DNA of 58,038 nt from an uncultured archaeon (GCA_964586885.1 CAZPID010000001.1:24080-82117); one strand, 5' to 3'; positions 28,060 to 58,038 are shown, counted from the first letter of the stretch. The notes: generated by a model not told the origin, from the sequence alone. A program made the numbers and translations.

Positions 28060-29385
28060 TTAGGTTTTTTGTACTGAAATACCATATTGAGTAGACAGCC
28101 ATTCGATCCAGATATTCCATGTTAGTGAGCCAAACCCAATTTGATTATTTTTCTTTTTACCTAATTGTTCCATCATATCCATTATTTCTCCTAGTGTTAA
28201 ATCATCACCAACTAACTTTCTTTTAGATTCTGCCATTAGAGCGATCAGACCTGAAGAATGTGGAGTGGCCATTGACGTGCCAGAGATAGCTCCATAACGT
28301 TGAATTAACTTATCAGTTAAATCTAAAACTCCAACTAAGGGTGCATCTATATTGACTCCTGGTGCTACAATATCTGGTTTTATTCTCCCGTCTTTGGTAG
28401 GGCCTCGACCACTAAAATTTGGTACTTTTCCATCAAAGGTACTAAATGCTCCAACAGTTAAAACATTTGGTAACCAACCAGGAGTTGAAACAGATCCAGG
28501 TTCTGGCCCCGAATTTCCAGAAGCGATAACTGGAATAAGTCCTTGTTCTTCAGCTTTGATCATGGCTTCGAAATAGACATCCTCTTCAGGTTTTTGCATT
28601 TCCTCGGGAACATCTCCACCTAAACTCATTGATAAAACTTTAGATCCATTCTCTAAGGCTATTTCAATGCCACCTAAAATACTTCCATCAGTTCCTATAC
28701 CAATTCCAAATCCCAATGACTTAACTGAAGTAAGTTCAACTTCTGGGGCCATTCCTTCAGTAGGTATTCTTTCACCTACCAGTCTTGAAGTGACATCGTC
28801 TATAGTTAATTTCCCTCCTACACAGGCAGTTGTCCACGTTCCGTGACCGTTTTCATCTCTCAGTTGAGGTAGAGTTCTTTTAAATTCCACTCTGTCGAGT
28901 AAGGCTTCATGTGTTCTGGAAGCTCCAGTATCTACAATCGTTACCCTAATCCCCCTCCCTAGGAATCCCGCATTGTTCGCTATGTCGGCTCCTATAACTT
29001 TTTTACTAAAAAATGTAGAAGTAATTATTTTTCCTTTAAAATTAAAGGTTCCTGGAGGCGATTCACTGAAAGCAAATTTTTCTTCATCGGGGAAGATCTT
29101 TTCAACATCGGGATCTTCAGCTAAGTCAAAAATATCTTCTCTGCCAATGAAGGCAGAGATCATATTTAGCTTAATAAAGGACTGACCTAATGTTTCTGGA
29201 ACAGGTACTTTTTCTCGAAATCTGGGCAAAATTCTATCCTCTTGAATAAATTTAGAAAGATCTAAATTTTTTACAGTTTCTATTAGTGGTCCAAGTCTAC
29301 CTGGTTTTGCTAATATGATGACTGGAGTCGCAACTCTTGATTGCGCTCTTATTTCAGCAAGCCTAGTCAGTGAACTATTGATCAC
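28060..29385 (-). CDS. subtilisin-like serine protease (peptidase S8)
   Basis: Catalytic triad motifs VTIVDTGAS (Asp), NGHGTWTTA (His) and SGTSMATPHSSG (Ser). Confidence 0.9.
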   Translation of the reverse strand: MINSSLTRLAEIRAQSRVATPVIILAKPGRLGPLIETVKNLDLSKFIQEDRILPRFREKVPVPETLGQSFIKLNMISAFIGREDIFDLAEDPDVEKIFPDEEKFAFSESPPGTFNFKGKIITSTFFSKKVIGADIANNAGFLGRGIRVTIVDTGASRTHEALLDRVEFKRTLPQLRDENGHGTWTTACVGGKLTIDDVTSRLVGERIPTEGMAPEVELTSVKSLGFGIGIGTDGSILGGIEIALENGSKVLSMSLGGDVPEEMQKPEEDVYFEAMIKAEEQGLIPVIASGNSGPEPGSVSTPGWLPNVLTVGAFSTFDGKVPNFSGRGPTKDGRIKPDIVAPGVNIDAPLVGVLDLTDKLIQRYGAISGTSMATPHSSGLIALMAESKRKLVGDDLTLGEIMDMMEQLGKKKNNQIGFGSLTWNIWIEWLSTQYGISVQKT

Positions 29386-31642: not shown

Positions 31643-32894
31643 ATGAAAGTAGTCGCTGTCATCTCTCTAAACGGCTGATAAAGTCGGGAGCTAAGGTGGC
31701 ACGGGAAAAACTTTATGCGCTATAAACATCGCGCATTATCTGAAAAAAAAGTATAAAGCAACAGTTGGTCTTATAGATGCGGATTTAGATTCTAGTAATT
31801 TTGCTGATATGGTAAATTTAAAAGATAAGGTTAAGATCACAGAAGACAAAAAGTTTTCTCTTCCTCAATGGGATGGAATTAAGGTCTTTAGTATGTCTCT
31901 AATGATAGACAAAAAACAGAGTATCAGTATGACAGCTGACAGATATGTGCAGATGCTAAATGATGTAATCGAACAAACGCAGTGGGACGTAGATTATATG
32001 ATCTTAGATATGCCAGCAGGAAATAGTGATGTATACAAAGCATACTTAGCTTTCTTTGATCGTCAGATAATTGGTGACATAGTTATTATTCAGCCTGCAG
32101 CTATTTCAGACGCTTACAGAATAATAGATACTCATAAAAGATTTGAAGTGCCTATTTTGGGACTAATAGAAAATATGTCAGGATTTCAATGTGTTGAATG
32201 TAAGAAGAAAGAAGATCTATTTGGTCCAACAATCGTGGATAAACTTGCTAAGGAATTTAAGTTGGAATCACTAGGAAAAATTCCACTAACTGGAGAAATT
32301 ACTGCAGGAGTAAAAAGAGGAAATCCAGTTCTTTCTCCAAAATTAAACAAACCAATTCTGGTAGCATGTGAAAGAATTGTCAAAGCTCCAATACGAACTA
32401 CTAGTTTCTTGGAAAGGTTAAAAGATAGAGTTGGTACTATTTCTAGAAATTTGGTAGAAAAAGTAATGCTGGAATTTATAGTTTCTGCTAATGAGCATTT
32501 AAATTTAGGACATATTCAGTCCGAGACCGGTTTTACTGAATCTAGACCGTTTGATTTAGTCATAATTAATCAACAGGAACAGGAGGTGATAAAACGTATT
32601 CCGCTAAGATTTGTTGATGGAATGATGAAAGTTGCAAAGACTGAAAGGACTCCAGATTTTGAGCTACATACTAGTTTCCAAACTTTAGCTAGAATATTTA
32701 TGGGAAAAATGAAAGTAGGAAATGGAAAGATTGATTATGATCCTCTAGGAGCTTGGCTTAATGGTGATATTACAGTTTACGGTATGGCTCATTCTCCTTG
32801 GGCTTTTAGTGTTTTACAGGAGATCTTTGGTAATGAAAAAGTAATACACGAGGTCAGAAGCAAATTTGGAAACTTGCTCGAGAGATTTATTTGA
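31643..32894 (+). pseudogene. Mrp/ApbC/NBP35-type Fe-S cluster carrier ATPase fused to an SCP2-like domain; 5' end disrupted
   Basis: ATG at 31643 gives MKVVAVISLNG, then TGA TAA (31676..31681). The P-loop GGTGKT (31695..31712) lies in the frame of track ORF 31809..32894 but is cut off by the TAA at 31692..31694. Downstream motifs are ILDMPAGNSD and ENMSGFQCVECKKKEDLFG. Confidence 0.55.
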
Positions 32895-43488: not shown

Positions 43489-44250
43489 ATGACCCAAATT
43501 CGATCTCATATGGTAGATAAAAAAGTGGATTATTTAGGAACTGGAAATCCTAATTGGAAAGGAGGAAGGCAGAATACGAATTGTATTATTTGTGGCAGGA
43601 TAGTCTATATTGGTCCTAAATATAAAAATAAGAGGATTCATTGTTCTAGAATATGCTGGGGTATAACTAGAAAGAATGAAATGTTGAATGGACAATTTAA
43701 GATTCCCATGTATAAAGTTCATCCTAGAGGGATGCTGGGTAAGTCTCATTCTAAATATACTAGGAAATTGATTTCGAAGAAACTTAAAGGCAGGAGGCCA
43801 CATAATAAATATCACCTTATTGGTAGGTATGGTAACGATAATCCAGCAACTAGACCAGAGGTAAGAGAAAAGATTAGGATAGCTAGGTTAAAACAAAAAA
43901 TGCCTACTAAAGATACTAATATTGAAAAAATAATTAAACACAAATTAGAAATTTATCATATCAAATATCAACAGAATTCTCCAATCGAAAATCTGTGTCA
44001 ACCAGACTTTGTAATAGAAAGTAGAAAAGTAGCAATCTTTGCCGATGGATGTTATTGGCATGGATGTCCAATTCATTGTCCTGATAGGGCAGAAAGGAGG
44101 TTGAGAGATCAAAATCTTACTAATTTATTAGTTTCAAAAGGGTGGATGGTCCTACGATTTTGGGAACATGACATTTTAGATAATCTAGAATATATTGAAG
44201 ATATTCTACAGAGGACCCTAGGAATGGAAAGATATGTCAAAAATTCCTAG
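43489..44250 (+). CDS. free-standing homing-endonuclease-like protein (paralogue 3, Vsr-like)
   Basis: CIICG...CSRIC zinc ribbon; basic NUMOD-like repeats; Vsr hallmark QPDFVIESRKVAIFADGCYWHGCPIHCP...VLRFWEHD. Confidence 0.7.
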   Translation: MTQIRSHMVDKKVDYLGTGNPNWKGGRQNTNCIICGRIVYIGPKYKNKRIHCSRICWGITRKNEMLNGQFKIPMYKVHPRGMLGKSHSKYTRKLISKKLKGRRPHNKYHLIGRYGNDNPATRPEVREKIRIARLKQKMPTKDTNIEKIIKHKLEIYHIKYQQNSPIENLCQPDFVIESRKVAIFADGCYWHGCPIHCPDRAERRLRDQNLTNLLVSKGWMVLRFWEHDILDNLEYIEDILQRTLGMERYVKNS

Positions 44251-45184
44251 ATATTATGGTATCAAGAAAAGATATCCTCGACTTCCTGGTGATAAATGGA
44301 AGGCATATTTACAAATGATTAGACCTTTTACCGTTTTTGCTGCTGGATTGGCTGGAATATTTTTAGGAATTACCTTTACTTTACTTTCAGGTGGTACTTT
44401 TGGTGATGGAAAGGTTATCTTATTAGGATTAACTTTAGGACTTTTACAGGCTGGTGGGCAATGCTTTAATTTAAGTTATCCAAAAGAAATTGAAATTGAT
44501 AAAATCAATAAGCCTTATCGTCCTACAGTTACAGGTCTAGTTACTACCAAATCAGGATTTATTTTATCATTTATTTTATTTGGTATTGGAAATTCTACTG
44601 CTTTTTTGCTAGGATTAGAAGCTGGAATAGTATCATTAGTCATAACATTGTTCGCAATTTTCTATACAGCATCTCCAATTAGAGCCAAGGAAAGATTTAT
44701 GGTTGGTAATATATATCAAGGAATAGCCAGAGGACTTTTACCACCAATATTCGCGAGTATGATCTTTGGTTTTTATGAATTCGCCATAGTCTACGGCATC
44801 GCTATAGCGTTATGGATTACAGGTTTCCAATCAACTAAAGACTTTGATGATATAGAAGGAGATAGACAGTTCGGAATTAAAACTTTACCAGTTGTTTTAG
44901 GAAGACGAGGTACTATATCAGCGATGATGGTAATGCTAATAGCGTCTTCCGTGCCTCTTTATTTAGGTTTTGCATTAGGAATTATTCCAAACGAGCCAAT
45001 ATGGTTCTTAATATTTGCTCCATTGATCATATCAATTAAGATTCTGACGACTTTAAAGAAGGATGTGAAGATGGTACGTATGGAAAATTCTCTCAGTTGG
45101 GTCTATTTTTATTTGACATTAATGTTCTGGTTTATGATTCCAATGGCAATAGTAGGAATAAAATATGTCAATTCAGTCTTATGA
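44234..45184 (+). CDS. UbiA-family prenyltransferase (DGGGP-synthase-like)
   Basis: 316 aa, multi-TM; EIEIDKINKPYRPTVTG and KDFDDIEGDRQFGIKTLPVVLG. Confidence 0.8.
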   Translation: MSKIPRYYGIKKRYPRLPGDKWKAYLQMIRPFTVFAAGLAGIFLGITFTLLSGGTFGDGKVILLGLTLGLLQAGGQCFNLSYPKEIEIDKINKPYRPTVTGLVTTKSGFILSFILFGIGNSTAFLLGLEAGIVSLVITLFAIFYTASPIRAKERFMVGNIYQGIARGLLPPIFASMIFGFYEFAIVYGIAIALWITGFQSTKDFDDIEGDRQFGIKTLPVVLGRRGTISAMMVMLIASSVPLYLGFALGIIPNEPIWFLIFAPLIISIKILTTLKKDVKMVRMENSLSWVYFYLTLMFWFMIPMAIVGIKYVNSVL

Positions 45185-45371
45185 AAATACTAGATCGGCG
45201 GGACTAGCAATTATTTTCCTATTTGGTCCAATTGTAGGAAGTTTTGGCATGTTATTAAGAATGGATGAACTTTATCAATTCGGAATTTTGATAACCGTGG
45301 CAATTAGCATTGTGTTAGGAATTATAATGTTGCTTTCTATTCAAACTAAGCCTCTGCAAAAGTTTAAGTAA
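45165..45371 (+). CDS. small membrane protein
   Basis: 68 aa with two hydrophobic helices. Confidence 0.45.
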   Translation: MSIQSYENTRSAGLAIIFLFGPIVGSFGMLLRMDELYQFGILITVAISIVLGIIMLLSIQTKPLQKFK

Positions 45372-45391
45372 TTATTTAACAAATTTAGAAT

Positions 45392-45709
45392 ATGCTTAGA
45401 AGGAGAATTTTTAGAGATGAAACTTTAGAACAGAAATCTCAAGTCGTTTCTGCTGATTATGGATTTGATATATTTGCCGAAAATTTTAGGAAAGGTCTAT
45501 CTAAGATCTGTGGATTTTCGGAAGAAAATATTAAATTAAATAATTTAAAAAATTTCCTAAAAACTATAATGTATCAGTCTACATCAGATAGTATGAGGAA
45601 TATATCTCTTCAAATTCCGAGTCCATCTCAACAAGAACTTTTAGGTAAACAATTTGGCAGGATCCTCAAAGATGTTATTAAAAAGGAGAAGGCAATAAAT
45701 TTTCGTTAA
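45392..45709 (+). CDS. hypothetical protein with MLRRRIF N-terminal tag
   Basis: 105 aa; the first 20 nt are identical to those of the ORF starting at 57146. Confidence 0.45.
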   Translation: MLRRRIFRDETLEQKSQVVSADYGFDIFAENFRKGLSKICGFSEENIKLNNLKNFLKTIMYQSTSDSMRNISLQIPSPSQQELLGKQFGRILKDVIKKEKAINFR

Positions 45710-45864
45710 CTTCTCAAGAACAGAAACTATTTACTGGTCAACCAGCCATGTTCGCTAATTTTTGTATTGAAATGTCAAAAGCTACAGGATTGACATTATC
45801 TAAAATAATCAAATCTGTTCCAGCGAAAAATTATAAAAAGAAATTACTGGGAAGAGTGTGATTT

Positions 45865-45882
45865 ATACATAAAAGTTTATAA
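45865..45882 (+). promoter_or_regulatory. BRE/TATA-like promoter element ATACATAAAAGTTTATAA
   Basis: Exact 18-mer is also found (rc) at 3928..3945; the TATA-like TTTATAAT ends 21 nt before the ATG at 45905. Confidence 0.5.
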
Positions 45883-45904
45883 TACTTTAACTATATCTTA
45901 TTTT

Positions 45905-46162
45905 ATGGGAGGAATAATCCAAACCATTCTAAATGCCGTATCTAATCCAAAAGATGTTAAATCACGAGGAGATAATTTTATCAGCCTTGTGGTGCAAAAT
46001 AGGAAAGAACGTCTGAAATTAATCAGAGAAGTTGGTCCTAAAATTGTGACACAAGCAACTAGAACGGCGACACAAATTAAGAAAAATATTGAGTCCCAAA
46101 CCAAAACCCAGACAAAGACCAAAACAGAAGAATCGGAGTCTAAAACTAAAGGGAAGGGATAA
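45905..46162 (+). CDS. hypothetical basic protein
   Basis: 85 aa, preferred over the antisense ORF 45898..46176 because of composition, the upstream promoter element and the downstream T10 run. Confidence 0.45.
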   Translation: MGGIIQTILNAVSNPKDVKSRGDNFISLVVQNRKERLKLIREVGPKIVTQATRTATQIKKNIESQTKTQTKTKTEESESKTKGKG

Positions 46163-46177
46163 GATTTTCTTATCACC

Positions 46178-46187
46178 TTTTTTTTTT
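46178..46187 (+). terminator. oligo-T tract (T10)
   Basis: T10 run 16 nt after the stop at 46162. Confidence 0.35.
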
Positions 46188-46198
46188 GGAATTAAGAA

Positions 46199-47155
46199 AT
46201 GTTAGTAGAAAAATATAGACCTCAAACATTTGATGAAATCTTAGGTCAAGATAAAATTAAAGGAGGACTAAAAAATTTAATCAATAGAACTAAACATGGT
46301 GAAAAATTACCGCACATGCTCTTCTCAGGTCCTCCGGGATGTGGTAAGACCGCTATGGCAGCAGTTTTAGCAAAAGCTTTGGAAATAGATTTTGTAGAAT
46401 ATAATGCCAGTGATAATAGAAGGATAGAGTTTGTGAGAGAAGAACTTAAAAGTTTAGCAATTGTTACTGGCAGGAGGATAGTTTTGTTGGACGAAGCTGA
46501 TGCAGTAACGCATGATGCACAACATGCACTAAGAAGAATTATTGAAAAAGCAACATGTACTTTTATCTTAACATGTAATGAAGATTGGAAGATCATAGAT
46601 CCGATAAAGTCCAGATGCATTAACTTTCGTTTTGAAAGGCTGTCAAGGAAAAATTTATTGGAATTAATAACCAAGGTTTTAAAGTCTGAAGGAGTGATAA
46701 TAGAGAAGACCGAAGATGCTAAAAAAGCATTTGAATTATTGTTGGAATATTGTAATGGAGACGCCAGAAAGATTTTAAATATGATTGAAGGTCTGATTAA
46801 CGAAAATAAAGAATTTACACCTGGAAATATTCAATTGTTGATGCCAACCAATTTTGCTCAGGAAATACTAGATCTGGCTCTACAAGGTAATTTTACAGAA
46901 GCCTTAAAAAAACTTGAAGATACCTATATTTACAATCAATTAGATGCTAATCTGACAATTAAAAATCTGTATAGCGCTTTAAAGGATTTACCAGCAGAGA
47001 ATATAATAAAATTCAAGCTATTTGATAAATTGTCTGACATTGAAAGGAATATCAAAATAGGATGCCATCCATTAATACAGTTTGCTTCATTTCTGTCAGT
47101 AGTCTATATGTCACCACAAATGATCAAAGCGGAGGTAAGCGAGAATGTCAATTAA
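46199..47155 (+). CDS. rfcS: replication factor C small subunit
   Basis: VEKYRPQTFDEILGQ, SGPPGCGKT, VLLDEADAVT, KSRC. Confidence 0.9.
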   Translation: MLVEKYRPQTFDEILGQDKIKGGLKNLINRTKHGEKLPHMLFSGPPGCGKTAMAAVLAKALEIDFVEYNASDNRRIEFVREELKSLAIVTGRRIVLLDEADAVTHDAQHALRRIIEKATCTFILTCNEDWKIIDPIKSRCINFRFERLSRKNLLELITKVLKSEGVIIEKTEDAKKAFELLLEYCNGDARKILNMIEGLINENKEFTPGNIQLLMPTNFAQEILDLALQGNFTEALKKLEDTYIYNQLDANLTIKNLYSALKDLPAENIIKFKLFDKLSDIERNIKIGCHPLIQFASFLSVVYMSPQMIKAEVSENVN

Positions 47156-47324
47156 AATTTTAGATTTTTTCATAAATTATTATAATAAATGGAATGATTT
47201 GAAATTATTAAAGAAAACGTTGATAAAAAACGAAGACGAATATAAAAATATGAAGCAGGATTCTAGGGATAAAAAACAGGAAATTAGAGCCTTAAAGAAG
47301 GTTATTGCCTGGAAAGAGAAATGA
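47145..47324 (+). CDS. small coiled-coil ORF (59 aa, below the track cutoff)
   Basis: The ATG overlaps the rfcS end, and the stop forms an ATGA junction with the next ORF. Preferred over the minus-strand ORF 47180..47374. Confidence 0.35.
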   Translation: MSIKILDFFINYYNKWNDLKLLKKTLIKNEDEYKNMKQDSRDKKQEIRALKKVIAWKEK

Positions 47325-47473
47325 GTCAGAGCGGATGTAATATGATATATGTATTTCAAAAGAACTACAGACACAAAGAACTTCTCCGAAAAAGATGTTT
47401 AGCATGCTATGAAGGATTACATTTCTGTCATTATCAGTTTGGATATTGTAAATGTCCGGAGTGTTCCACTTGA
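47321..47473 (+). CDS. small Cys-rich ORF (50 aa, below the track cutoff)
   Basis: MSQSGCNMIYVFQKNYRHKELLRKRCLACYEGLHFCHYQFGYCKCPECST. Confidence 0.35.
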   Translation: MSQSGCNMIYVFQKNYRHKELLRKRCLACYEGLHFCHYQFGYCKCPECST

Positions 47474-47829
47474 GTCAGAAGAAAGTATTACCTAAAAAAC
47501 TTTATCTTACAATGATACCATGTATTGGATCTAAAAAGGAAGGAATTCCCGGACATTATGCTTTAAATATTGACAGTGATTTTAATCCACATCTTCTGAT
47601 ATGTCAGGAACATGCATGTGATGTTCTGTACTATGATTCCATAGAAAAGAAATGGTACATGAAACCTGGATTCAAGCCAGAAGCCACAAGGACTGAAAAA
47701 GATGAACCAGAAAAAAATTTAGAGATAACAAAGAAGATGGAACATTGTTCTTGTAAAAATTTAAAAAGATACGTCGATGATAACGGACTCGAGAGATGTA
47801 GAACGTGTGGAGGTTTGATATGCAAGTAG
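47452..47829 (+). CDS. hypothetical Cys-rich protein
   Basis: 125-aa track ORF; C-terminal CSC...CRTCGGLIC; the start may be the internal ATG at 47512. Confidence 0.45.
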   Translation: MSGVFHLSQKKVLPKKLYLTMIPCIGSKKEGIPGHYALNIDSDFNPHLLICQEHACDVLYYDSIEKKWYMKPGFKPEATRTEKDEPEKNLEITKKMEHCSCKNLKRYVDDNGLERCRTCGGLICK

Positions 47830-48014
47830 AAAAGATCATCAGAAGAAAAATTTCAGAGCAGAAAATTAACTGGAGAGATACAGCGACTATTCGTTGTAAT
47901 AGGTGTAATCATAAGTTAAAGTATCCAATCTATATAAATCAGAGGAATTATGGAAAAACATGTGCGAAGAAAATACAAATGGATTTGAAATATAATTTGA
48001 GGGAATGGATATGA
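47805..48014 (+). CDS. small zinc-ribbon protein ending in NLREWI
   Basis: 69 aa; CNRCNHKL...; the C-terminus matches the LxxW[IL] ending of PolB, the MTase and DpdA. Confidence 0.45.
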   Translation: MWRFDMQVEKIIRRKISEQKINWRDTATIRCNRCNHKLKYPIYINQRNYGKTCAKKIQMDLKYNLREWI

Positions 48015-48724
48015 AGAAATTATCACCAACAGCTATGGCGACTTATATGGCATGTCCCAAAAAATTTGATTATACTTATAATAGACAAATAACTCCTTTA
48101 GAATCCAGATGGAAGGAATCTTTAGATTTTGGTAGATTGATACATGATGTTGTAGCAAATTATTATCGGCATGTTACCTCTGAACTAACACCTAATTTAA
48201 TCAAGTTGAATATCTATGCAGAGGCTAAAAAAATAATTGATTTTAATGGTCTTACCAAAGAAGATAGAGAGAAGGTAGATAGACATTTGAAAGTTTTTTG
48301 TGAATTCGAGGTCGAGAGGATAAGGTCGGGAGTAATTTCAAAACCATTGGCAGTTGAAAAAGATATTGAAAGAGCTGGAGTTCATGCTATTGTGGATGCA
48401 CTTTTTAAGCATAAAGATGGTAGATTGATATTATACGACTGGAAAACTCTATACGGTTGGTATCCTCAATTAAATGATGGAATGATGATACAAGGAGCAA
48501 TTCAAAAATTTGTTACAGGAGCAGATGAAATGAATTTTGTGTTTTTGCAGAGCGGTACCGTCTTGCCACTGCCAGAAGATGTGAACATGCTCCTGGTAAA
48601 ACCAATTTATTATGGAATTAAGAATAAACATTTTGATAGGCAGAAGGGCGAACAATGTCTTTCTTGTCCATTCAATATCATTTGTAGATTAGAGGAGATG
48701 CAGGTTGCAACAGAACATATCTAA
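48005..48724 (+). CDS. Cas4/RecB-like PD-(D/E)XK exonuclease with Cys cluster
   Basis: N-terminal Cys (YMACPKKF), IVDALFKHKDGRLILYDWKT (D...DxK), C-terminal CLSCPFNIIC. Confidence 0.7.
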   Translation: MDMKKLSPTAMATYMACPKKFDYTYNRQITPLESRWKESLDFGRLIHDVVANYYRHVTSELTPNLIKLNIYAEAKKIIDFNGLTKEDREKVDRHLKVFCEFEVERIRSGVISKPLAVEKDIERAGVHAIVDALFKHKDGRLILYDWKTLYGWYPQLNDGMMIQGAIQKFVTGADEMNFVFLQSGTVLPLPEDVNMLLVKPIYYGIKNKHFDRQKGEQCLSCPFNIICRLEEMQVATEHI

Positions 48725-49145
48725 CCAGCCAATCAATATGCTATCTTGGCAAGACATCGAATACAGGATACAGGATTTAAAAAATATTTTTGATAGGTAT
48801 CAGTTAGACAAAGAAATCACTAAATTATATGCTGTGCCGTTAGGCGGCATTATTCCTGGAGTTTTATTAAAGAAAGAGATATCTCTAGCAATTGAATTTA
48901 AAGTTCTAGGTAAAGAGGATAGTTCTCATGATGTCGTTTTGATTATAGACGACATAGTTGATTCTGGTAAAACTTTTACTAGGATTTTTAATAGTTTTCC
49001 AAATGCTTATTTTTTCTCTTTATACGCTAAAGAAGGATTTAACAAAATTAAGCGGTTAATTGGAAATAAATATGAGACTGCAAAAATCTTTCCTAATCGG
49101 TGGCATGTATTTCCGTGGGAAGATAAAGAAGAGGGGAAGATATGA
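48705..49145 (+). CDS. type I phosphoribosyltransferase (gpt/XGPRT-like)
   Basis: PRPP loop VVLIIDDIVDSGKTF; YAVPLGGIIPGVLL; C-terminal WHVFPWE, resembling E. coli Gpt (W..QPW). Confidence 0.7.
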   Translation: MQQNISNQPINMLSWQDIEYRIQDLKNIFDRYQLDKEITKLYAVPLGGIIPGVLLKKEISLAIEFKVLGKEDSSHDVVLIIDDIVDSGKTFTRIFNSFPNAYFFSLYAKEGFNKIKRLIGNKYETAKIFPNRWHVFPWEDKEEGKI

Positions 49146-49939
49146 CAATAAAGTACATGAAGAAGGAACTTCTACAATTGAAAGACTGGATTAAAAATTG
49201 GAAAGATCAGGAGAAGAGAACGTGTATTCTTTTTGGTAAACCTGGGATTGGTAAGTCTGAATCAGTATATGAAATCTGTAAGGATTTAGGATTTACCATA
49301 GCGGAATTTAATACTAGTGATCATAGAGGACAAGAATTTATGGCTAGATTATATAGAGATGTTAGGAATGAAAGTCTGATGCCAGTAGTCTATCTTTTAG
49401 ACGAATTTGATGGCATGGATGCGTATGATAATTTTAATCAAGTGGTAGCAGTAACCAGACATCCAATCGTTATGACCTGCAATGCTATATATAAAATTCC
49501 ACAGCCTATTATAGATTCTAGTTTCGTCATTTCTTATTATATGAAAACAGGACAGTCGTTACGGATAGCCAAATATGACGGTCTTGACAGTAATTTTGAA
49601 TCAGTTTCGGGAGATGTCAGACAATCATTATTAGCAAAGTTGGGGAGTCAAGGTTATACTGTAAATAAAACACAATCTGTAAGATTGGAAGAATTTTTAA
49701 AGAGTGGCAATGCTGATAATTTGAAAGGTTCTGACTACATAGTTCTCTTAGATAATTCATCAAAACTGTTTTATGGTTATTTTCTTTATTCTTTCGTTCA
49801 ATCTCTACAATTAGCAAACAAATGTAAAAACAATGCGCCATTAGAAAAATATATGTCTAATGCTAAATTAGGATCTTCATATTTCTATGAAAAAAGGAGA
49901 GTAGGACAAGATGGGAGTACAAAAATCAGGTGGCAGTAG
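49142..49939 (+). CDS. RFC large-subunit-like AAA+ clamp-loader protein
   Basis: ILFGKPGIGKSE, EFNTSDHRG, VYLLDEFDGMD, PIVMTCN. Confidence 0.65.
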   Translation: MTIKYMKKELLQLKDWIKNWKDQEKRTCILFGKPGIGKSESVYEICKDLGFTIAEFNTSDHRGQEFMARLYRDVRNESLMPVVYLLDEFDGMDAYDNFNQVVAVTRHPIVMTCNAIYKIPQPIIDSSFVISYYMKTGQSLRIAKYDGLDSNFESVSGDVRQSLLAKLGSQGYTVNKTQSVRLEEFLKSGNADNLKGSDYIVLLDNSSKLFYGYFLYSFVQSLQLANKCKNNAPLEKYMSNAKLGSSYFYEKRRVGQDGSTKIRWQ

Positions 49940-50108
49940 ATACACAGGAAAAAGGATATTTATTGATATGAATGCCTATGAAATACTTTCTACAGTAAAG
50001 AAACATATCAAGGAGAAAAAAGTAGGAACAAAGAAAAGACCTTCTCTTGCAGATGCTATTAGATATTTAAAAGATAATGGTTCGCAAGGAATCAAATTTA
50101 AGAAATGA
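49911..50108 (+). CDS. RHH-like small protein
   Basis: 65 aa; KRIFIDMNAYEILSTVKKHI...SLADAIRYL. Confidence 0.35.
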   Translation: MGVQKSGGSRYTGKRIFIDMNAYEILSTVKKHIKEKKVGTKKRPSLADAIRYLKDNGSQGIKFKK

Positions 50109-51052
50109 ATGAACAAATAACTATCACTCCTGAAATTCATGAAACGTTAAAGGTCATTCTAAAATATGAAAATAAGGAAGGAAAGAAAAAAAACTATCTT
50201 GGTTTCAAGTGGATTGATATTGCAGTCAAACCTCAAATTCTCCACAAGTTACTTTATGCAGGCCTGTTAAAGAAAGGATATTATAGTTCCAAACATAAAT
50301 TCTTTAGGATCAAATCTAAGGTGGGAATTAAAAAATTGATCAGGCAATATGAAGATGATCAGAAACGTCAGAAAATCAAGGAACCTTTAGAGATGATACC
50401 TAAAATCAGGATCCCAGAGGATCTTTTTAAACCAATTGTTGGCTATGATGATATCAAGAAACTATTTTTGACCTCCATTAAATCTAAAGAACCTGTTCAT
50501 GTGTTATTACAAGGACCTCCAGCTAGTGCAAAAACAGTATTCCTTTTAGAAGTAGCCAGATTGATAGGTTCTTACTATGCTCTTGGCGGCTATTCCTCAA
50601 AGGTCGGACTAGTGGAGCAATTGGTTGCTTTAAAACCAAAATACTTGCTAATTGATGAATTTGAGAAGATGGATAAAAAAGACATGACAGTTTTACTTGG
50701 TTTATGTGAGAATGGTCTCATTAAAGCAGATATACATGGAAAGCACATAGAATTGAGACTAAAAACTAGGGTCTATGCAGCATGCAATAATTTTAGCAAA
50801 GTACCTCCAGAAATCCTAAGTAGATTTATGAAATTAAAACTACAAAAATATTATAGGAAAGATTTTGTAAAAATTGCGACTCAGGTTTTAAAAATTAGAG
50901 AAGGAATTGGCATCAAACTGTCAAGTTTTATAGCAGAAAAACTAGCAGATCTTGAGGTTTATGATGTTAGAGATGCTGTCAGAATCGCTCGACTTTCAAA
51001 GGATGAGAATCAAGTTAATGATTGGATAGATTTATTGATAAAATATGGATAG
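50105..51052 (+). CDS. MCM-related AAA+ ATPase (mini-MCM-like) with N-terminal winged-helix-like region
   Basis: IVGYDDIKK, VLLQGPPASAKT (Walker A), YLLIDEFEKMD (Walker B), RVYAACNN (sensor 1), LSRF (Arg finger). Confidence 0.55.
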   Translation: MNEQITITPEIHETLKVILKYENKEGKKKNYLGFKWIDIAVKPQILHKLLYAGLLKKGYYSSKHKFFRIKSKVGIKKLIRQYEDDQKRQKIKEPLEMIPKIRIPEDLFKPIVGYDDIKKLFLTSIKSKEPVHVLLQGPPASAKTVFLLEVARLIGSYYALGGYSSKVGLVEQLVALKPKYLLIDEFEKMDKKDMTVLLGLCENGLIKADIHGKHIELRLKTRVYAACNNFSKVPPEILSRFMKLKLQKYYRKDFVKIATQVLKIREGIGIKLSSFIAEKLADLEVYDVRDAVRIARLSKDENQVNDWIDLLIKYG

Positions 51053-51109
51053 GGAATTAGACGGTAAAAAATTTTTATTTACTTGCTGAGACAAGGAACA
51101 ATGTAGATA

Positions 51110-52264
51110 TTGAAACAAAAGTATGACTGTATTATCGTGGGGGCCTCGTTTTCTGGCGTGATGGCAGCACGACAATTAAATCATAGGGATGATCTAGAAA
51201 TTCTGATAGTTGAACAAGGTAATGGTTTAGGAAGACCTTTTCATACTACAGGAGGAGTAGCAAAATTTTGGTTAGAAGATATGGGCGTAGTACCCCCCGA
51301 TGAATGTTATGCTAGCCGTTTGACAGGAATGCGTTTAAAAAGTGACGAGAACGAACATACTTGGAGGTTCGGAAGGACCATTGGATATACTTTACATCCT
51401 GATAAATATATGGAATGGTTAGGTAAGGATCTAAATTGTGATATAGTTTTTAGTAAAAGGGTTACAAAAGCAGAAATTATCGAAAATGGCAAGAAAGAAG
51501 TCGAAGTTACTGCTGGAAACAATAAGATTAGGACCAAATACTTGATCGCTGCAGATGGACCAAACAGTATCGTTGCTAGAAGTTGTGGACTTTATCAAAG
51601 GCTAAAACCGGACAGTGAACATATTGGTATGGAATATTCTATTCCTTACCGTGAAGAAGTGAATGAAAAAGAGATAGTAACCTTACATTTTTCTAGGACT
51701 TATGCTCCACATGGTTATGTTTGGAGATTTCCGGCAGGAGATCAGATCAAGGTAGGATTGGGAATACCGACTAGTGCACACAAAAGGCCTAAAGAAAGAT
51801 TAGATAGTTACTTTAGAGAGATACTTAAAATTAAGCCTGAAGTCATTACAGCGCATGGAGGAATTATTCCAACTTCTTACCCATTAACAAGGCCAGTATT
51901 TAAGGATAGGATTTTCTTTACTGGAGATGCCGCTAGATTTTGTTCGCCATTGCATGGGGGAGGAATTCTACAAGCACTAGTCACTGGAAAAATTATAGGA
52001 GAAGCGATTAATAAAAATTTTTTACATCCTAAAGATATTAGACGAGAATACATGACGAAGATTAGTTGGACATTAAAAACTTTGAAGATGCACTACAGGA
52101 TGAAAAAGCTAATTTACAGTATGTCGGATCATGACTTTACACAATTGATAGATATTTTAAAATCCTATAAGATTAGTAATTTTGATCCAAATGCCGAGAT
52201 CAGGAAATTAGGATGGTATATCTTAAGGCATAAGCCACAATGGTTTCTCAAAACTCTTTTCTAG
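51110..52264 (+). CDS. FAD-dependent geranylgeranyl reductase family protein (TTG start)
   Basis: YDCIIVGASFSGVMAA dinucleotide-binding motif, LIAADGPNS, FTGDAARFCSPLHGGGI. Confidence 0.8.
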   Translation: MKQKYDCIIVGASFSGVMAARQLNHRDDLEILIVEQGNGLGRPFHTTGGVAKFWLEDMGVVPPDECYASRLTGMRLKSDENEHTWRFGRTIGYTLHPDKYMEWLGKDLNCDIVFSKRVTKAEIIENGKKEVEVTAGNNKIRTKYLIAADGPNSIVARSCGLYQRLKPDSEHIGMEYSIPYREEVNEKEIVTLHFSRTYAPHGYVWRFPAGDQIKVGLGIPTSAHKRPKERLDSYFREILKIKPEVITAHGGIIPTSYPLTRPVFKDRIFFTGDAARFCSPLHGGGILQALVTGKIIGEAINKNFLHPKDIRREYMTKISWTLKTLKMHYRMKKLIYSMSDHDFTQLIDILKSYKISNFDPNAEIRKLGWYILRHKPQWFLKTLF

Positions 52265-52269
52265 AAATT

Positions 52270-52806
52270 TTATCTTTTACGTCTTGTTGAACGTTTTCTG
52301 TGTGAGGTTCTGCGTGTTGTTTTGTGTTTAGTTTTTTTTACCTTAGCAGTTGATTTACTAGTTTGTGTTCTTTTTTTTCGAGATTTCCTACGTTTCATTT
52401 TTCCGCCAGGTTTTGGAATTATATCTCGAAGTTTTGGACGCTTTGGACCTCTTCCCTTACCTTTACGTCTTCTTCGACGTCTTATGATTCTACGAATAGG
52501 TCCCTGGATAGCTTGAGTTGAAAATGCCGTTGTCATTCCTTTTGCCCAAGTTTGGCCTTTCGCTGAATTTTTTATACCGCTAATAAATTGTGGTAAGAAT
52601 TTTTCTGCATTCTGCTGAAATATTTTAAAGTTGGATACAGGTAGACTTCTTGAAACAATAGAACGATTAAGTCCTAAAAATTTAGATACGCCATCTACGA
52701 AGTTAGACTGAGTACCGGCACTTTTAATTTGTTTTAGCCAAAATCCTTTTTTGGCTAAGGTATTATTCAGCCATTTCTCCTGAGCAATCTGTAATCGTGT
52801 TGTCAC
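52270..52806 (-). CDS. protein with protamine-like basic C-terminal tail (GTG start)
   Basis: 178 aa; about 40 of the last 75 residues are K/R (RRIIRRRRRRKGKGRGPKRPK...HRKRSTRRKR). Confidence 0.5.
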   Translation of the reverse strand: MTTRLQIAQEKWLNNTLAKKGFWLKQIKSAGTQSNFVDGVSKFLGLNRSIVSRSLPVSNFKIFQQNAEKFLPQFISGIKNSAKGQTWAKGMTTAFSTQAIQGPIRRIIRRRRRRKGKGRGPKRPKLRDIIPKPGGKMKRRKSRKKRTQTSKSTAKVKKTKHKTTRRTSHRKRSTRRKR

Positions 52807-52812
52807 AATTTA

Positions 52813-53208
52813 ATGAAACAGAATCAATTATTTAACGATGTATATCATGGTAATACGGAGAATGTATTACAAATCGTGAACTTTAATATCTACTCCTCGA
52901 AAGAAAATATAACATTGAAAGAGATTATGACTGAGGTCCTCATTGTTAGATTAGATAAAGACCGGATGGCTGTGATTAATTCCCTCGTTGAAGTTATGAA
53001 AGTAGGTAAAAGTGAAGCGGCTAGGAGATGTATAGATTTTATGGAAATAATTGGAAATAGAAAAGCCACCTTACAAGAACTGGTTGACTTTGATAGGCTT
53101 AGAGGAGAAGGTCTGGGAAAAGATGATATTTTTGAAATTGCTTTTATGGATATAATTAGGCCAATTGAAGAGATTAGAAAAGAATGGGGTTTGGTTCACG
53201 TCTCTTAA
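52813..53208 (+). CDS. hypothetical protein, RHH-like segment
   Basis: 131 aa; EVLIVRLDKDRMAVINSLVEVMKVGKSEAARRCIDF; only 6 nt from the divergent ORF at 52806. Confidence 0.4.
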   Translation: MKQNQLFNDVYHGNTENVLQIVNFNIYSSKENITLKEIMTEVLIVRLDKDRMAVINSLVEVMKVGKSEAARRCIDFMEIIGNRKATLQELVDFDRLRGEGLGKDDIFEIAFMDIIRPIEEIRKEWGLVHVS

Positions 53209-54166
53209 TAAGTTTCCAATTTGGATAAAAACATGTAGAATTCATACAGCAGCATTGACAATGCCGATTCTGGTTATCGGTTATTTGATGGCAGGTGGAG
53301 AGATATGGAGTCTGGAGACCTTGTGGTGGGCCATGTTTGGTCTACTCTGGCATGCGATCGGCTTCCTTCAAAACAACATTTTTGACCTAAATGCAGACAA
53401 AAATGATCCTAACAAGCAGCATTTTCCATTAGTACGAGGAGACATAAATGTTTATCATGCTAACCTAGTTCAGCAGATAGGATTGGTAGTTATTGCATTA
53501 TTAGGTATAGCGTTGATGAACGGAAATATTGTCGCTTGGATAATTATGTTAGCAGCTATGGGAGCTGGTACCCTTTACAATAAAGTCTCTAAGACTTCTC
53601 TGACTTCTACTTTTTGGATTTGTCTTACTTTTAGTCCATTATTCCTGTTTAGTTATTTATCAACTGGAGGAGAAATGGATCAAATAGCATGGCTAATATT
53701 TTTCTTTATCAATCTACAAATAGCATTTCAAATTGGATATAGTGGATATCTTAAAGAGATTGGCTCTCTAGAACAAATAAATCTTCTGAGAAAAATGGGA
53801 GCCCGTGTTAAGGATGGAATTTTTGAACCTAAATATGCTCTTATCTTTGGCAGTTTACTAAGAGGGGCAACAATAATCCTACTGGTATTAATTGCTAGTG
53901 AATTAATTGAATGGATTCTGGTCCTGAGTTTCTTTGCAGTTTCTCAAGTATTTGTTTTCATGATTATGAAAAGAAGAAAATGGGAAAGAGATAAAGATTT
54001 GAAAAGAATGTCATTAGTGGAAGCTTTGACATATTTTACTTTACCTGTAGCAATTGGTTCTATAATTGGTTGGGATGCTGTTGCTTTCTTAATCATTTTT
54101 CCGTTGATATGGTTCGTTATGTGGAATCGTCTGATCTGGGGTACCAAGTTCACTCCGAAAGTTTAG
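53165..54166 (+). CDS. UbiA-family prenyltransferase, paralogue 2 (TTG start)
   Basis: 333 aa, multi-TM; first Asp-rich motif LQNNIFDLNADKNDPNK..FPLVRG; no clear second Asp-rich motif seen. Confidence 0.6.
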   Translation: MKRLEKNGVWFTSLNKFPIWIKTCRIHTAALTMPILVIGYLMAGGEIWSLETLWWAMFGLLWHAIGFLQNNIFDLNADKNDPNKQHFPLVRGDINVYHANLVQQIGLVVIALLGIALMNGNIVAWIIMLAAMGAGTLYNKVSKTSLTSTFWICLTFSPLFLFSYLSTGGEMDQIAWLIFFFINLQIAFQIGYSGYLKEIGSLEQINLLRKMGARVKDGIFEPKYALIFGSLLRGATIILLVLIASELIEWILVLSFFAVSQVFVFMIMKRRKWERDKDLKRMSLVEALTYFTLPVAIGSIIGWDAVAFLIIFPLIWFVMWNRLIWGTKFTPKV

Positions 54167-54215: not shown

Positions 54216-55148
54216 ATGGAACTTCTTAGTCTGATTGGTACTGCCGGTATCTTACAGAGGATCGGAATCAATACTGAAATTGTAAAGAGAAGGGCAGGAT
54301 TAGATAAAGCTGAAGTAGATATAGAAATCAAGGTTTTTGATCGTGCAACTAATGAAGGAATTAAATTTGCTCCCGTTTCTGTTTTCTTAAATGGATTTTT
54401 TATTCTGAGAGGTCTCACAGGAGAGAATGGTATAATTAGAAATTCAATAAATTTATTTGAAGTTGGCAACAATCGTATTACTGGAGTTTTTACAAGAGAA
54501 ATTGATTTTGAAAAATTAGGTATTAGAACCCCACAAAGTTCTGATGATATCGAAGTTAGAACATTAGAAGTTAAAACTACAAATGAAGATAAACAAGAAC
54601 TTTTAGATATTCCAGTGAGAGTTTCTCCTCTAGATACAGATGTATTGAAAGAACCAATCTCAATAAGAAACCGACAGAAATTATTTGTTCCCCTTATCCA
54701 AAGTGAAAGATTCCGCATAGACTTTCCGATAGAGTCCGCAGATGGAGAATTTGGCCTTTTTCAACTAGAAGATAGGATTGAAGTTGATCTGACCGACAAT
54801 CTTCAAATTTTAGGAAAGTACATGCCTTTTAAACGGTTAGTTTTCCTAAGTGAATTATGTCCTACAGAAATTAGAGGACCAGTTATGTCTAGATTGAGAA
54901 GGGAAACTGAAATAAAGTTAAAGGCCTTGAAGACTAGCGTTTTGGAATTGGATGCTTTAGGTCCTCCTGTAATTTTTAGTCCTGATCAGACTTTTGGAGA
55001 TGGCTGGAAAATTGACGGAAAGGAAATATTAGAAAAATTGATAACGTTAGAGTTATTTGATGATACTAATCTAGAGCCAGTCTGTTTTGAATGGGTAAGT
55101 AAATTTCAACGGTTGGCTGGTATTAGTTCCTGGGCAGTCAAGAATTAG
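54216..55148 (+). CDS. hypothetical protein
   Basis: 310-aa track ORF; its 169-aa antisense ORF is judged a shadow. Confidence 0.5.
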   Translation: MELLSLIGTAGILQRIGINTEIVKRRAGLDKAEVDIEIKVFDRATNEGIKFAPVSVFLNGFFILRGLTGENGIIRNSINLFEVGNNRITGVFTREIDFEKLGIRTPQSSDDIEVRTLEVKTTNEDKQELLDIPVRVSPLDTDVLKEPISIRNRQKLFVPLIQSERFRIDFPIESADGEFGLFQLEDRIEVDLTDNLQILGKYMPFKRLVFLSELCPTEIRGPVMSRLRRETEIKLKALKTSVLELDALGPPVIFSPDQTFGDGWKIDGKEILEKLITLELFDDTNLEPVCFEWVSKFQRLAGISSWAVKN

Positions 55149-57738: not shown

Positions 57739-58029
57739 TCAAATTCCCTCCTTTGGTTTAGCTGAATCACTTTGAAATAAGACTTCGTTTTTACATATAT
57801 TAAAATGGGTTCCACAATCATGTCTAACGGAGGGAGTTACCGTCACAGTAACATCGTCAATCCAATCTATTACATGATCTATCAATATACACTCTTCTCC
57901 ACAGACTGGACATGCCATAGTTAAAGATTTTTCCTTTCCTGATTTCCACAGATAGCATGCTTGTCCAATAGACAACGATAATGGTTTTCCATTATCATAA
58001 GGCCTTTTCTTTAATATTATAATTCTCAA
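57739..58029 (-). CDS. hypothetical zinc-binding protein
   Basis: 96 aa; CPVCGEEC...H..C. Confidence 0.45.
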   Translation of the reverse strand: MRIIILKKRPYDNGKPLSLSIGQACYLWKSGKEKSLTMACPVCGEECILIDHVIDWIDDVTVTVTPSVRHDCGTHFNICKNEVLFQSDSAKPKEGI

Positions 58030-58038
58030 TTAGATATC

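Follow-up and report, generated by a model that had tools for sequence, protein, structure and literature searches.

A recurrent trio of two UbiA-family prenyltransferase genes and a geranylgeranyl reductase paralogue on an archaeal mobile element of viral type

We analysed a stretch of 58,038 nucleotides (hereafter the window) from an uncultured archaeon (GCA_964586885.1 CAZPID010000001.1:24080-82117), which carries two genes for UbiA-family prenyltransferases, here called UbiA-1 and UbiA-2, and one for a paralogue of geranylgeranyl reductase (GGR). The window is the second piece of a scaffold, C1, whose first piece of 24 kb is separated from it by a gap of 100 N (C1:23980-24079). A first-pass annotation, made from the sequence alone, had proposed that the three genes are isoprenoid-lipid or quinone genes carried by a virus. 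To judge from gene content, the trio represents metabolic cargo on a mobile element, and its enzymes belong to three clades that are uncharacterised. All three open reading frames (ORFs) exist at the positions and on the strand first given for them:

44234..45184, plus strand: UbiA-1, a prenyltransferase of the digeranylgeranylglyceryl-phosphate synthase (DGGGPS)/chlorophyll synthase (ChlG) branch, in a distinct clade found mainly on mobile elements (PF01040, 114.5 bits)
51110..52264, plus strand: GGR paralogue, an FAD-dependent prenyl reductase of a clade that lacks the canonical cysteine (PF22578, 40.7 bits)
53165..54166, plus strand: UbiA-2, of an unnamed divergent UbiA family (PF01040, 59 bits)

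The gathering cut-offs are 34.2 bits for PF01040 (UbiA) and 27 bits for PF22578 (GGR_cat). The sequence strings on which the first-pass annotation relied were found in the translations, EIEIDKINKPYRPTVTG and KDFDDIEGDRQFGIKTLPV in that of 44234..45184 and VGASFSG, AADGPNS and GDAARFCSPLHGGGI in that of 51110..52264. Conservation of the N-terminal segment W-I-K-x-x-R-I-H-T-A-A-L-T in relatives supports the TTG start of UbiA-2 at 53165; automatic gene calls of 301 aa drop this segment.

Hidden Markov models of the three families were scored on every locus recovered via homologues. The families recur jointly on at least six other distinct archaeal contigs, from Nitrososphaerota and Thermoplasmatota metagenome-assembled genomes (MAGs) and from metagenomes. 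The usual arrangement is a contiguous GGR-UbiA-1-UbiA-2 operon, observed at loci L010-12 (Nitrososphaerota MAG contigs, beside a phage-type integrase gene), L021, L022 and L024; the trio is adjacent in L017 (a Thermoplasmatota MAG) and interspersed with S8 protease and ParA genes in L019, and partial sets occur in L015, L018 and L023. The window's own order of GGR, basic-tailed ORF, 131-aa ORF and UbiA-2 is kept in L005 (96% identity) and L006 (50-61%). Frequent companions of the trio across these loci are homologues of the S8, ParA-like and MCM-like genes of the window and of a small HExxH protein encoded on the 24-kb piece of C1. A DUF2061 membrane domain, fused or separate, is a variable fourth component at related loci and is absent from the window's element. 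Genes for geranylgeranyl diphosphate (GGPP) synthase, geranylgeranylglyceryl phosphate (GGGP) synthase or CDP-archaeol synthase were found with the trio at none of the related loci.

The ratio of nonsynonymous to synonymous substitution rates (dN/dS), computed for the window against L005, was 0.19 for GGR and 0.09 for UbiA-2, and both genes are thus under purifying selection. Because the three genes co-occur in conserved synteny, show low dN/dS and travel without precursor-synthesis genes, the trio probably acts as one functional unit that is under selection, complete in itself and dependent on the host for precursors. The conserved co-inheritance of the three genes is the strongest argument for their joint action, and it is this co-inherited module on related elements that the first-pass annotation had missed. 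The survey of viral contigs that it had proposed returned no relatives, either among IMG/VR viral contigs searched with UbiA-1, GGR and a UbiA-2 alignment, or, by tblastn with the three proteins as queries, among 50,697 deposited genomes of phages and viruses. Synonymous divergence (dS) from L005 is mosaic along window positions 48005-54166, with 0.22-0.26 for GGR and UbiA-2 but 0-0.06 for the genes beside them (nuclease, AAA+ and MCM-like), a pattern suggesting that recombination may have swapped the lipid-gene segment between close relatives.

The superfamilies first assigned to the three proteins proved correct, and the nearest solved relatives of UbiA-1 and of the reductase are DGGGPS and an archaeal lipid GGR, respectively; none of the three is an orthologue of the housekeeping enzymes, and all scores on NCBIfam equivalog models fall far below the cut-offs. 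For UbiA-1, the family profile matched Methanocaldococcus jannaschii DGGGPS (MJ0279, 6M31) best among solved structures (E 1.7e-34), followed by ChlG (E 9e-29). The M. jannaschii enzyme is crippled by mutation at N62, D66, D70, D180, D183 and D187, as well as in Y125..K130 (PMC9385802). The equivalent positions in UbiA-1 are N79, E85 (in place of D66), D89, Y144..K152, D203, D206 and D210, and motif 3 (K202-D203-x2-D206-x3-D210) is invariant in the family. UbiA-1 therefore resembles this multi-helix membrane enzyme in keeping N62, motifs 1 and 2 and the three aspartates of motif 3, but differs from it in the change of D66 to Glu, a 2-residue insertion in motif 1, a ChlG-like Y-x7-K in motif 2, and a separate position in the tree. 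The top NCBIfam models for UbiA-1 and its orthologues were PRK12884, ChlG, DGGGPS and homogentisate phytyltransferase (HPT), with ChlG the best model for the L010 orthologue; the DGGGPS equivalogs gave 81.5 bits (PRK12882, cut-off 296) and 80.7 bits (PRK12883, cut-off 353). On sequence grounds, UbiA-1 is best described as a member of the C20-transferring DGGGPS/chlorophyll-synthase branch of the UbiA superfamily.

To our knowledge, all known DGGGPS, ChlG/BchG and HPT members transfer a C20 geranylgeranyl or phytyl group, and their pathways include a GGR. The trio thus has a parallel in phototrophs, where chlorophyll synthase or HPT acts with ChlP, itself a GGR: C20 transfer by a UbiA-branch enzyme is coupled to a saturating GGR, and ChlG is the second-best structural relative of UbiA-1. 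In contrast to these systems, there is no tetrapyrrole or tocopherol context here, the genes lie on archaeal mobile elements, and the scores are far below the family cut-offs.

UbiA-2 confidently adopts a UbiA fold in its AlphaFold2 model (predicted local distance difference test score, pLDDT, 92.5). The best Foldseek match of this model was again M. jannaschii DGGGPS (6M31, E 4e-7, template-modelling (TM) score 0.61/0.71), with the A. pernix and A. fulgidus UbiA homologues, an Rv3806c-type phosphoribosyltransferase and UBIAD1 among the lower matches; target-normalised TM scores were 0.68-0.74 against 6M31, 4OD4 and 4TQ4. The family has no name and comprises at least 328 clusters in an exhaustive profile search at E<=1e-30; UbiA-2 was found in only one of about 185,000 species-representative genomes. 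Across 156 members the invariant residues are H63, N70-x3-D74-x3-D78-x2-D81-x2-K84, Y138-N139-x3-K143, G194-x2-K197-[D/E]198, N206, E286 and N321. Acidic residues at 203/204 are common without being invariant, and, unlike DGGGPS, UbiA-2 has no equivalent of D183. The exact C terminus of the family is P-x-V (P in 100% and V in 98% of the window protein and 155 relatives), and such an ending, uncommon among polytopic membrane enzymes, suggests that the C-terminal tail might have a function. On one metagenomic contig (L018 240-10960), four UbiA-2-family paralogues lie together with a UbiA-1 fragment, a local expansion of the family.

The GGR profile matched digeranylgeranylglycerophospholipid reductase of T. 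acidophilum (3OZ2) best (E 8.5e-56), and the S. acidocaldarius GGR with E 2e-42; on TIGR02032 the window protein scored 131.5 bits, below the cut-off of 158.8. It shares with archaeal GGRs (3OZ2; 3ATQ/4OPx) the fold, the domain order, the GxGxxG FAD-binding motif, YxWxFP (here GYVWRFP) and GGG (PLHGGGI), and in the tree the characterised lipid GGRs of Thermoplasma and Sulfolobus form the sister group of its clade. The other members of the clade come from Nitrososphaerota, chromosomal genes included. By these features, the reductase is a true GGR-fold flavoprotein. It differs from the characterised enzymes in its score on TIGR02032, in the genomic setting of its relatives (see below) and in two cysteines. 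The flavin-side Cys, Cys47 of the S. acidocaldarius enzyme, is reported as essential there and conserved in all archaeal GGRs (PMC10821996); in the window it is replaced by Thr (HTTGG), with [S/T]-T-G throughout the Nitrososphaerota-like clade. Members of this clade have instead a clade-specific, nearly invariant Cys just before the GGG motif, in F-C-S-P-L-H-G-G-G, which may be a relocated redox cysteine. The canonical Cys is present in the GGR encoded on contig C116 of the same bin, in the T. acidophilum and S. acidocaldarius enzymes, in distant GGRs and in the module GGRs of L017 and L019. A clade that lacks it, and that includes chromosomal Nitrososphaerota genes, casts doubt on the statement that Cys47 is universal among archaeal GGRs.

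The loss of a residue reported as essential raises the question of whether this GGR is catalytically dead, or no longer a reductase, in which case the trio would not be a biosynthetic pathway. We consider this very unlikely. Purifying selection acts on the Cys-less clade, which is large and conserved; its members keep the FAD-binding, YxWxFP and GGG motifs and have gained the new Cys next to GGG; and since L017 and L019 carry module GGRs with the canonical Cys, the module taken together is compatible with a reductase function.

Cys-less GGR genes also occur in another setting. On three independent Nitrososphaerota contigs (L007 10001-13188, L038 6001-9138 and L039 6001-9395), such a gene is followed by a UbiA gene of a third type (338-356 aa) and an ABC-2 permease gene, amid genes for an ABC ATPase, glycosyltransferases (GT2, GT4 and GT-C, the last PMT_2) and a phosphodiesterase. 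As far as we found, the function of this chromosomal cassette is not described in the literature searched. The UbiA of the cassette was considered as a phosphoribosyltransferase and rejected, with no sequence match in the PDB and a generic prenyltransferase model as its best NCBIfam match.

The closest cellular relatives of the window GGR thus sit in a glycosyltransferase/ABC-2 exporter cassette and not with core-lipid genes, and this brings in a possible, if unlikely, alternative: a module for surface glycans or lipid carriers, in which GGR would saturate a polyprenyl (dolichol-type) phosphate and one or both UbiA proteins would build a lipid-linked donor or anchor that modifies glycoconjugates of the host or virion, for example in superinfection exclusion or virion glycosylation. 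It would agree with the setting of UbiA-1 relatives on L013-L015, near genes for an MptE-like (Maf-type) protein, GT2, a B12-radical-SAM protein and a sugar oxidoreductase, and with the saturation of dolichol phosphate by GGR paralogues of Haloferax (Naparstek 2012, as cited in PMC6309074). However, of all UbiA matches, that to the only known UbiA enzyme that transfers a sugar phosphate (Rv3806c-type, 8J8J) is the weakest, by sequence as well as by fold, the cassette UbiA is of a third, unrelated type, and no glycosyltransferase gene lies in the 44-54 kb region of the window. The phosphoribosyltransferase (PRTase)-like gene of the window (48705..49145) was tried as a source of phosphoribosyl diphosphate for a UbiA protein resembling decaprenylphosphoryl-5-phosphoribose synthase and set aside: it is not conserved with the module, occurring elsewhere only in the near-identical L005, and 8J8J is, as stated, the weakest UbiA match.

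The trio genes are flanked on both sides by genes of the element, in an order that is the same in L005. The neighbours and companions in the window are:

28060..29385, minus strand: S8 subtilase, found with the module more often than any other companion in related elements (PF00082, 134 bits; homologues adjoin the module in L010, L013, L015, L019 and L022)
31809..32894, plus strand: ParA/Mrp-like ATPase, a companion (homologues in L010, L015, L019 and L022; Pfam CbiA/ParA on the L010 and L015 genes)
46199..47155: RFC-like clamp loader (Pfam)
48005..48724: PD-(D/E)XK/Cas4-like nuclease (Pfam)
48705..49145: PRTase-like ORF (sub-threshold Pfam match, E 0.005)
50105..51052, plus strand: MCM-like AAA+ ATPase, a companion (PF00493, 34.7 bits; homologues beside the module in L005, L021 and L024)
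52270..52806, minus strand: basic-tailed protein between GGR and UbiA-2 (phmmer: L005 E 4e-100, L006 E 2e-34, at the equivalent position)
52813..53208, plus strand: 131-aa protein directly 5' of UbiA-2 and overlapping it (conserved in L005 and L006)

A Pfam scan placed an AAA+ ATPase gene between the trio genes as well. The interleaving with RFC, MCM-like and Cas4-like genes that was first described is therefore real; the PRTase that completed that description is, as listed, a match below threshold. On the 24-kb piece, the HExxH companion is a protein of 143 aa (HETWH; C1:17513-17944, minus strand) whose gene is kept beside that of the S8 protease in L010, L013, L019 and L022, and the two may be a protease pair that marks the element family. 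Two genes of ~300 aa between S8 and UbiA-1 in L013 and L015 have no counterpart in the window by jackhmmer.

The right end of C1 (window 57984-58038) overlaps the end of another contig of the bin, C53, by an exact 55-mer, and C53 extends the element by 4.5 kb, in which small ORFs and a fibre-like protein rich in Gly are encoded. No housekeeping gene was found in the ~86 kb of C1 and C53 together. This DNA encodes a family-B DNA polymerase (PolB) with an intein, primases, a CobS/CobT-like pair, an intein-bearing QueE, other 7-deazaguanine genes, a DNA methylase, the S8 protease, the ParA/Mrp-like ATPase, a PKD-repeat protein and fibre-like Gly-rich proteins, in addition to long runs of small ORFs and, on the 24-kb piece, a tyrosine recombinase. 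The PolB is nearest to those of haloarchaeal tailed viruses, at only ~26% identity. From this gene content and the lack of housekeeping genes, the element is a mobile element of viral type. Since PHROGs and Pfam recognised no capsid, portal, terminase or other virion hallmark among the 30 ORFs tested outside the replication and modification genes, that it is a virus, as it was first labelled, is something we can only infer.

One might ask whether the trio consists of ordinary chromosomal lipid genes, in host DNA that flanks a provirus or in a mis-assembled or mis-binned host contig. The contig does sit in a prokaryotic MAG bin, the element encodes a tyrosine recombinase, and relatives of the module lie on contigs assigned to Nitrososphaerota and Thermoplasmatota MAGs. 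We nevertheless regard this explanation as extremely unlikely: in addition to the absence of housekeeping genes, the interleaving with RFC, nuclease and MCM-like genes is conserved in L005, UbiA-2 is next to absent from species-representative genomes, and the bin has distinct lipid genes of its own, a canonical DGGGPS-like gene (contig C52, NDYFDFRID) and the Cys-bearing GGR of C116. The earlier placement of the genes on the element, and not on a host flank, thus held.

The bin itself amounts to 818 kb in 182 contigs, and C1 exceeds the next-longest contig 4.5-fold in length. The 40 relatives nearest to the bin have genomes of 0.3-1.2 Mb, and among these 40 neither a true UbiA-2 homologue nor the module occurs. 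The tetranucleotide profile of C1 is slightly off that of the bin, and between C1 and the rest of the bin there is no CRISPR-spacer or att match, the sole match being the 55-bp assembly overlap with C53. Because of the tiny-genome relatives without the module, the tetranucleotide offset and the missing spacer or att link, the bin cannot be taken as the host of the element. Although its relatives are of DPANN-like size, the bin has both the canonical DGGGPS-like gene of C52 and, on C116, a GGR of bacterial type.

Our favoured interpretation, to which we give slightly less than an even chance, is that from GGPP of the host the module would produce a prenyl-ether membrane compound, archaeol-like and saturated, with a role in membrane remodelling or in envelope or vesicle formation. 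We favour it because the branch of UbiA-1 consists of C20 transferases that act in GGR pathways and because both UbiA proteins are nearest to DGGGPS, UbiA-1 by profile and UbiA-2 by fold. The analysis itself shows the families and folds, the retained catalytic residues, the joint occurrence and synteny of the trio, purifying selection, the mobile-element setting and the distance from the housekeeping enzymes; donor, acceptor, product and biological role are what we infer from these. The element would draw on the C20 prenyl diphosphate pool of its host, since no GGPP synthase travels with the module. UbiA-1 would move a geranylgeranyl or phytyl group onto an oxygen atom in a lipid-like acceptor, for which a GGGP-like prenyl-glycerol phosphate is the likeliest candidate, to give an archaeol-type diether; UbiA-2, as a second intramembrane prenyltransferase that would depend on Mg2+ and has an altered motif 3, might carry out a further or alternative prenyl transfer; and the GGR paralogue would saturate the chains. 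The product would be a saturated isoprenoid membrane compound under the control of the element, which might remodel the host membrane or furnish the envelope of a virion or vesicle.

Several observations weigh against this interpretation. In our trees (quick searches with SH-aLRT support alone, in which the characterised enzymes are represented by the sequence stretches printed by the PDB search), the UbiA-1 family forms a clade of its own (SH-aLRT 97) that lies apart from the clade of canonical DGGGPS (99), to which 6M31 and C52 of the bin belong. Phylogeny, which had been named as the check on a lipid role, places UbiA-1 in the DGGGPS/ChlG branch and GGR beside the lipid GGRs, but leaves UbiA-1 apart from the canonical DGGGP synthases. 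UbiA enzymes group according to their acceptor (Hemmi 2004, as cited in PMC9385802), and because UbiA-1 lies outside the canonical clade, it is quite possible that its acceptor differs from GGGP. The third Asp-rich motif of UbiA-2 is incomplete, as [D/E]198 alone is invariant and the D183 position is variable (Q/S/T/V), and its family reaches only generic "UbiA-like polyprenyltransferase" models, with TIGR01475 "ubiA_other" the best. To these must be added the Thr at the Cys47 position of GGR and the glycosyltransferase/ABC-2 setting of its cellular relatives, the lack of GGGP and CDP-archaeol synthase genes at related loci, and the lack of a recognisable envelope or capsid protein on the element.

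The generic model matches of UbiA-2 also bear on a quinone module, in which UbiA-2, UbiA-1 or both would prenylate an aromatic head group and GGR would saturate the side chain, so that host respiration is altered. There are parallels in the saturated menaquinones of Thaumarchaeota and in the menaquinone-specific prenyl reductase of A. fulgidus, menaquinone reduction being known for GGR-family enzymes. The UbiA-2 family matches some MqnP and 4-hydroxybenzoate prenyltransferase models besides TIGR01475, for its motif-1 region the best alignment is with the UbiA homologue of A. pernix, and a figure of thaumarchaeal integrative and conjugative elements (ICEs) lists CHLP, GGPS, UbiC, UbiA and UbiE (PMC5797428). 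Still, all matches to quinone-prenyltransferase models are far below cut-off, UbiA-1 falls in the DGGGPS/ChlG branch, and neither the window nor ~15 related loci have UbiC, UbiE, Men or Mqn head-group genes. A quinone module is, in our view, distinctly improbable.

A more specific form of the prenyl-ether interpretation, which we hold doubtful, is that archaeal viruses or vesicle-forming plasmids of hosts with tetraether membranes (monolayers of glycerol dialkyl glycerol tetraethers, GDGTs), for example Nitrososphaerota and Thermoplasmatota, encode a minimal pathway for a bilayer-forming archaeol-like diether or a novel prenyl lipid that is used to build or bud an envelope. Archaeal enveloped viruses are thought to acquire their lipids from the host, and it is not yet clear how, in hosts whose tetraether monolayers are rigid, particles with a curved membrane can arise. 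If this envelope-lipid proposal were true, it would be the first element-encoded archaeal membrane-lipid synthesis and would add two new UbiA acceptor specificities. More generally, the selected, element-borne trio would be the first sign that archaeal mobile elements make or tailor membrane isoprenoids, and the three uncharacterised clades (DGGGPS-like, unnamed UbiA and Cys-less GGR) are targets for cloning with a clear heterologous assay.

In the literature searched, we found no description of such a module on archaeal viruses or plasmids. The nearest case is the cargo of ICEs in Ca. Nitrosocaldus cavascurensis, for which the legend of Fig. 8 in Abby et al. 2018 names the five genes given above: it likewise places GGR- and UbiA-family genes on a mobile element of Nitrososphaerota. 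As far as the gene names in that legend allow a comparison, the ICEs differ in being conjugative (VirB4/VirD4) and in carrying a quinone-like set with GGPS, UbiC and UbiE, and no recurrent trio is described there. A single DGGR is listed for the jumbo Methanoperedens elements, and a survey of thaumarchaeal integrated mobile genetic elements does not mention the trio genes. Lipid genes of viruses, such as the lipid desaturases of cyanophages (Roitman 2018, as cited in PMC6563490), are similar in that host-like membrane-lipid enzymes are encoded on an element; they are, however, single bacterial-type fatty-acid genes on confirmed phages, whereas we describe a three-enzyme isoprenoid set on an archaeal element that is known from its genes alone.

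Two further features of the element were noted. The 5.4 kb at C1:1600-7000 contain only small ORFs (45-110 aa), mostly on one strand, with no Rfam match and no repeats, as is typical of early regions of archaeal viruses and plasmids. Just 3' of UbiA-2, an ORF of 310 aa (window 54216-55148) has a paralogue of 452 aa at C1:19070-20428 (minus strand), with 72% amino-acid and 83% nucleotide identity over the first ~300 aa; the pair may represent either a duplicated variable gene or a scaffold that joins two related strains.

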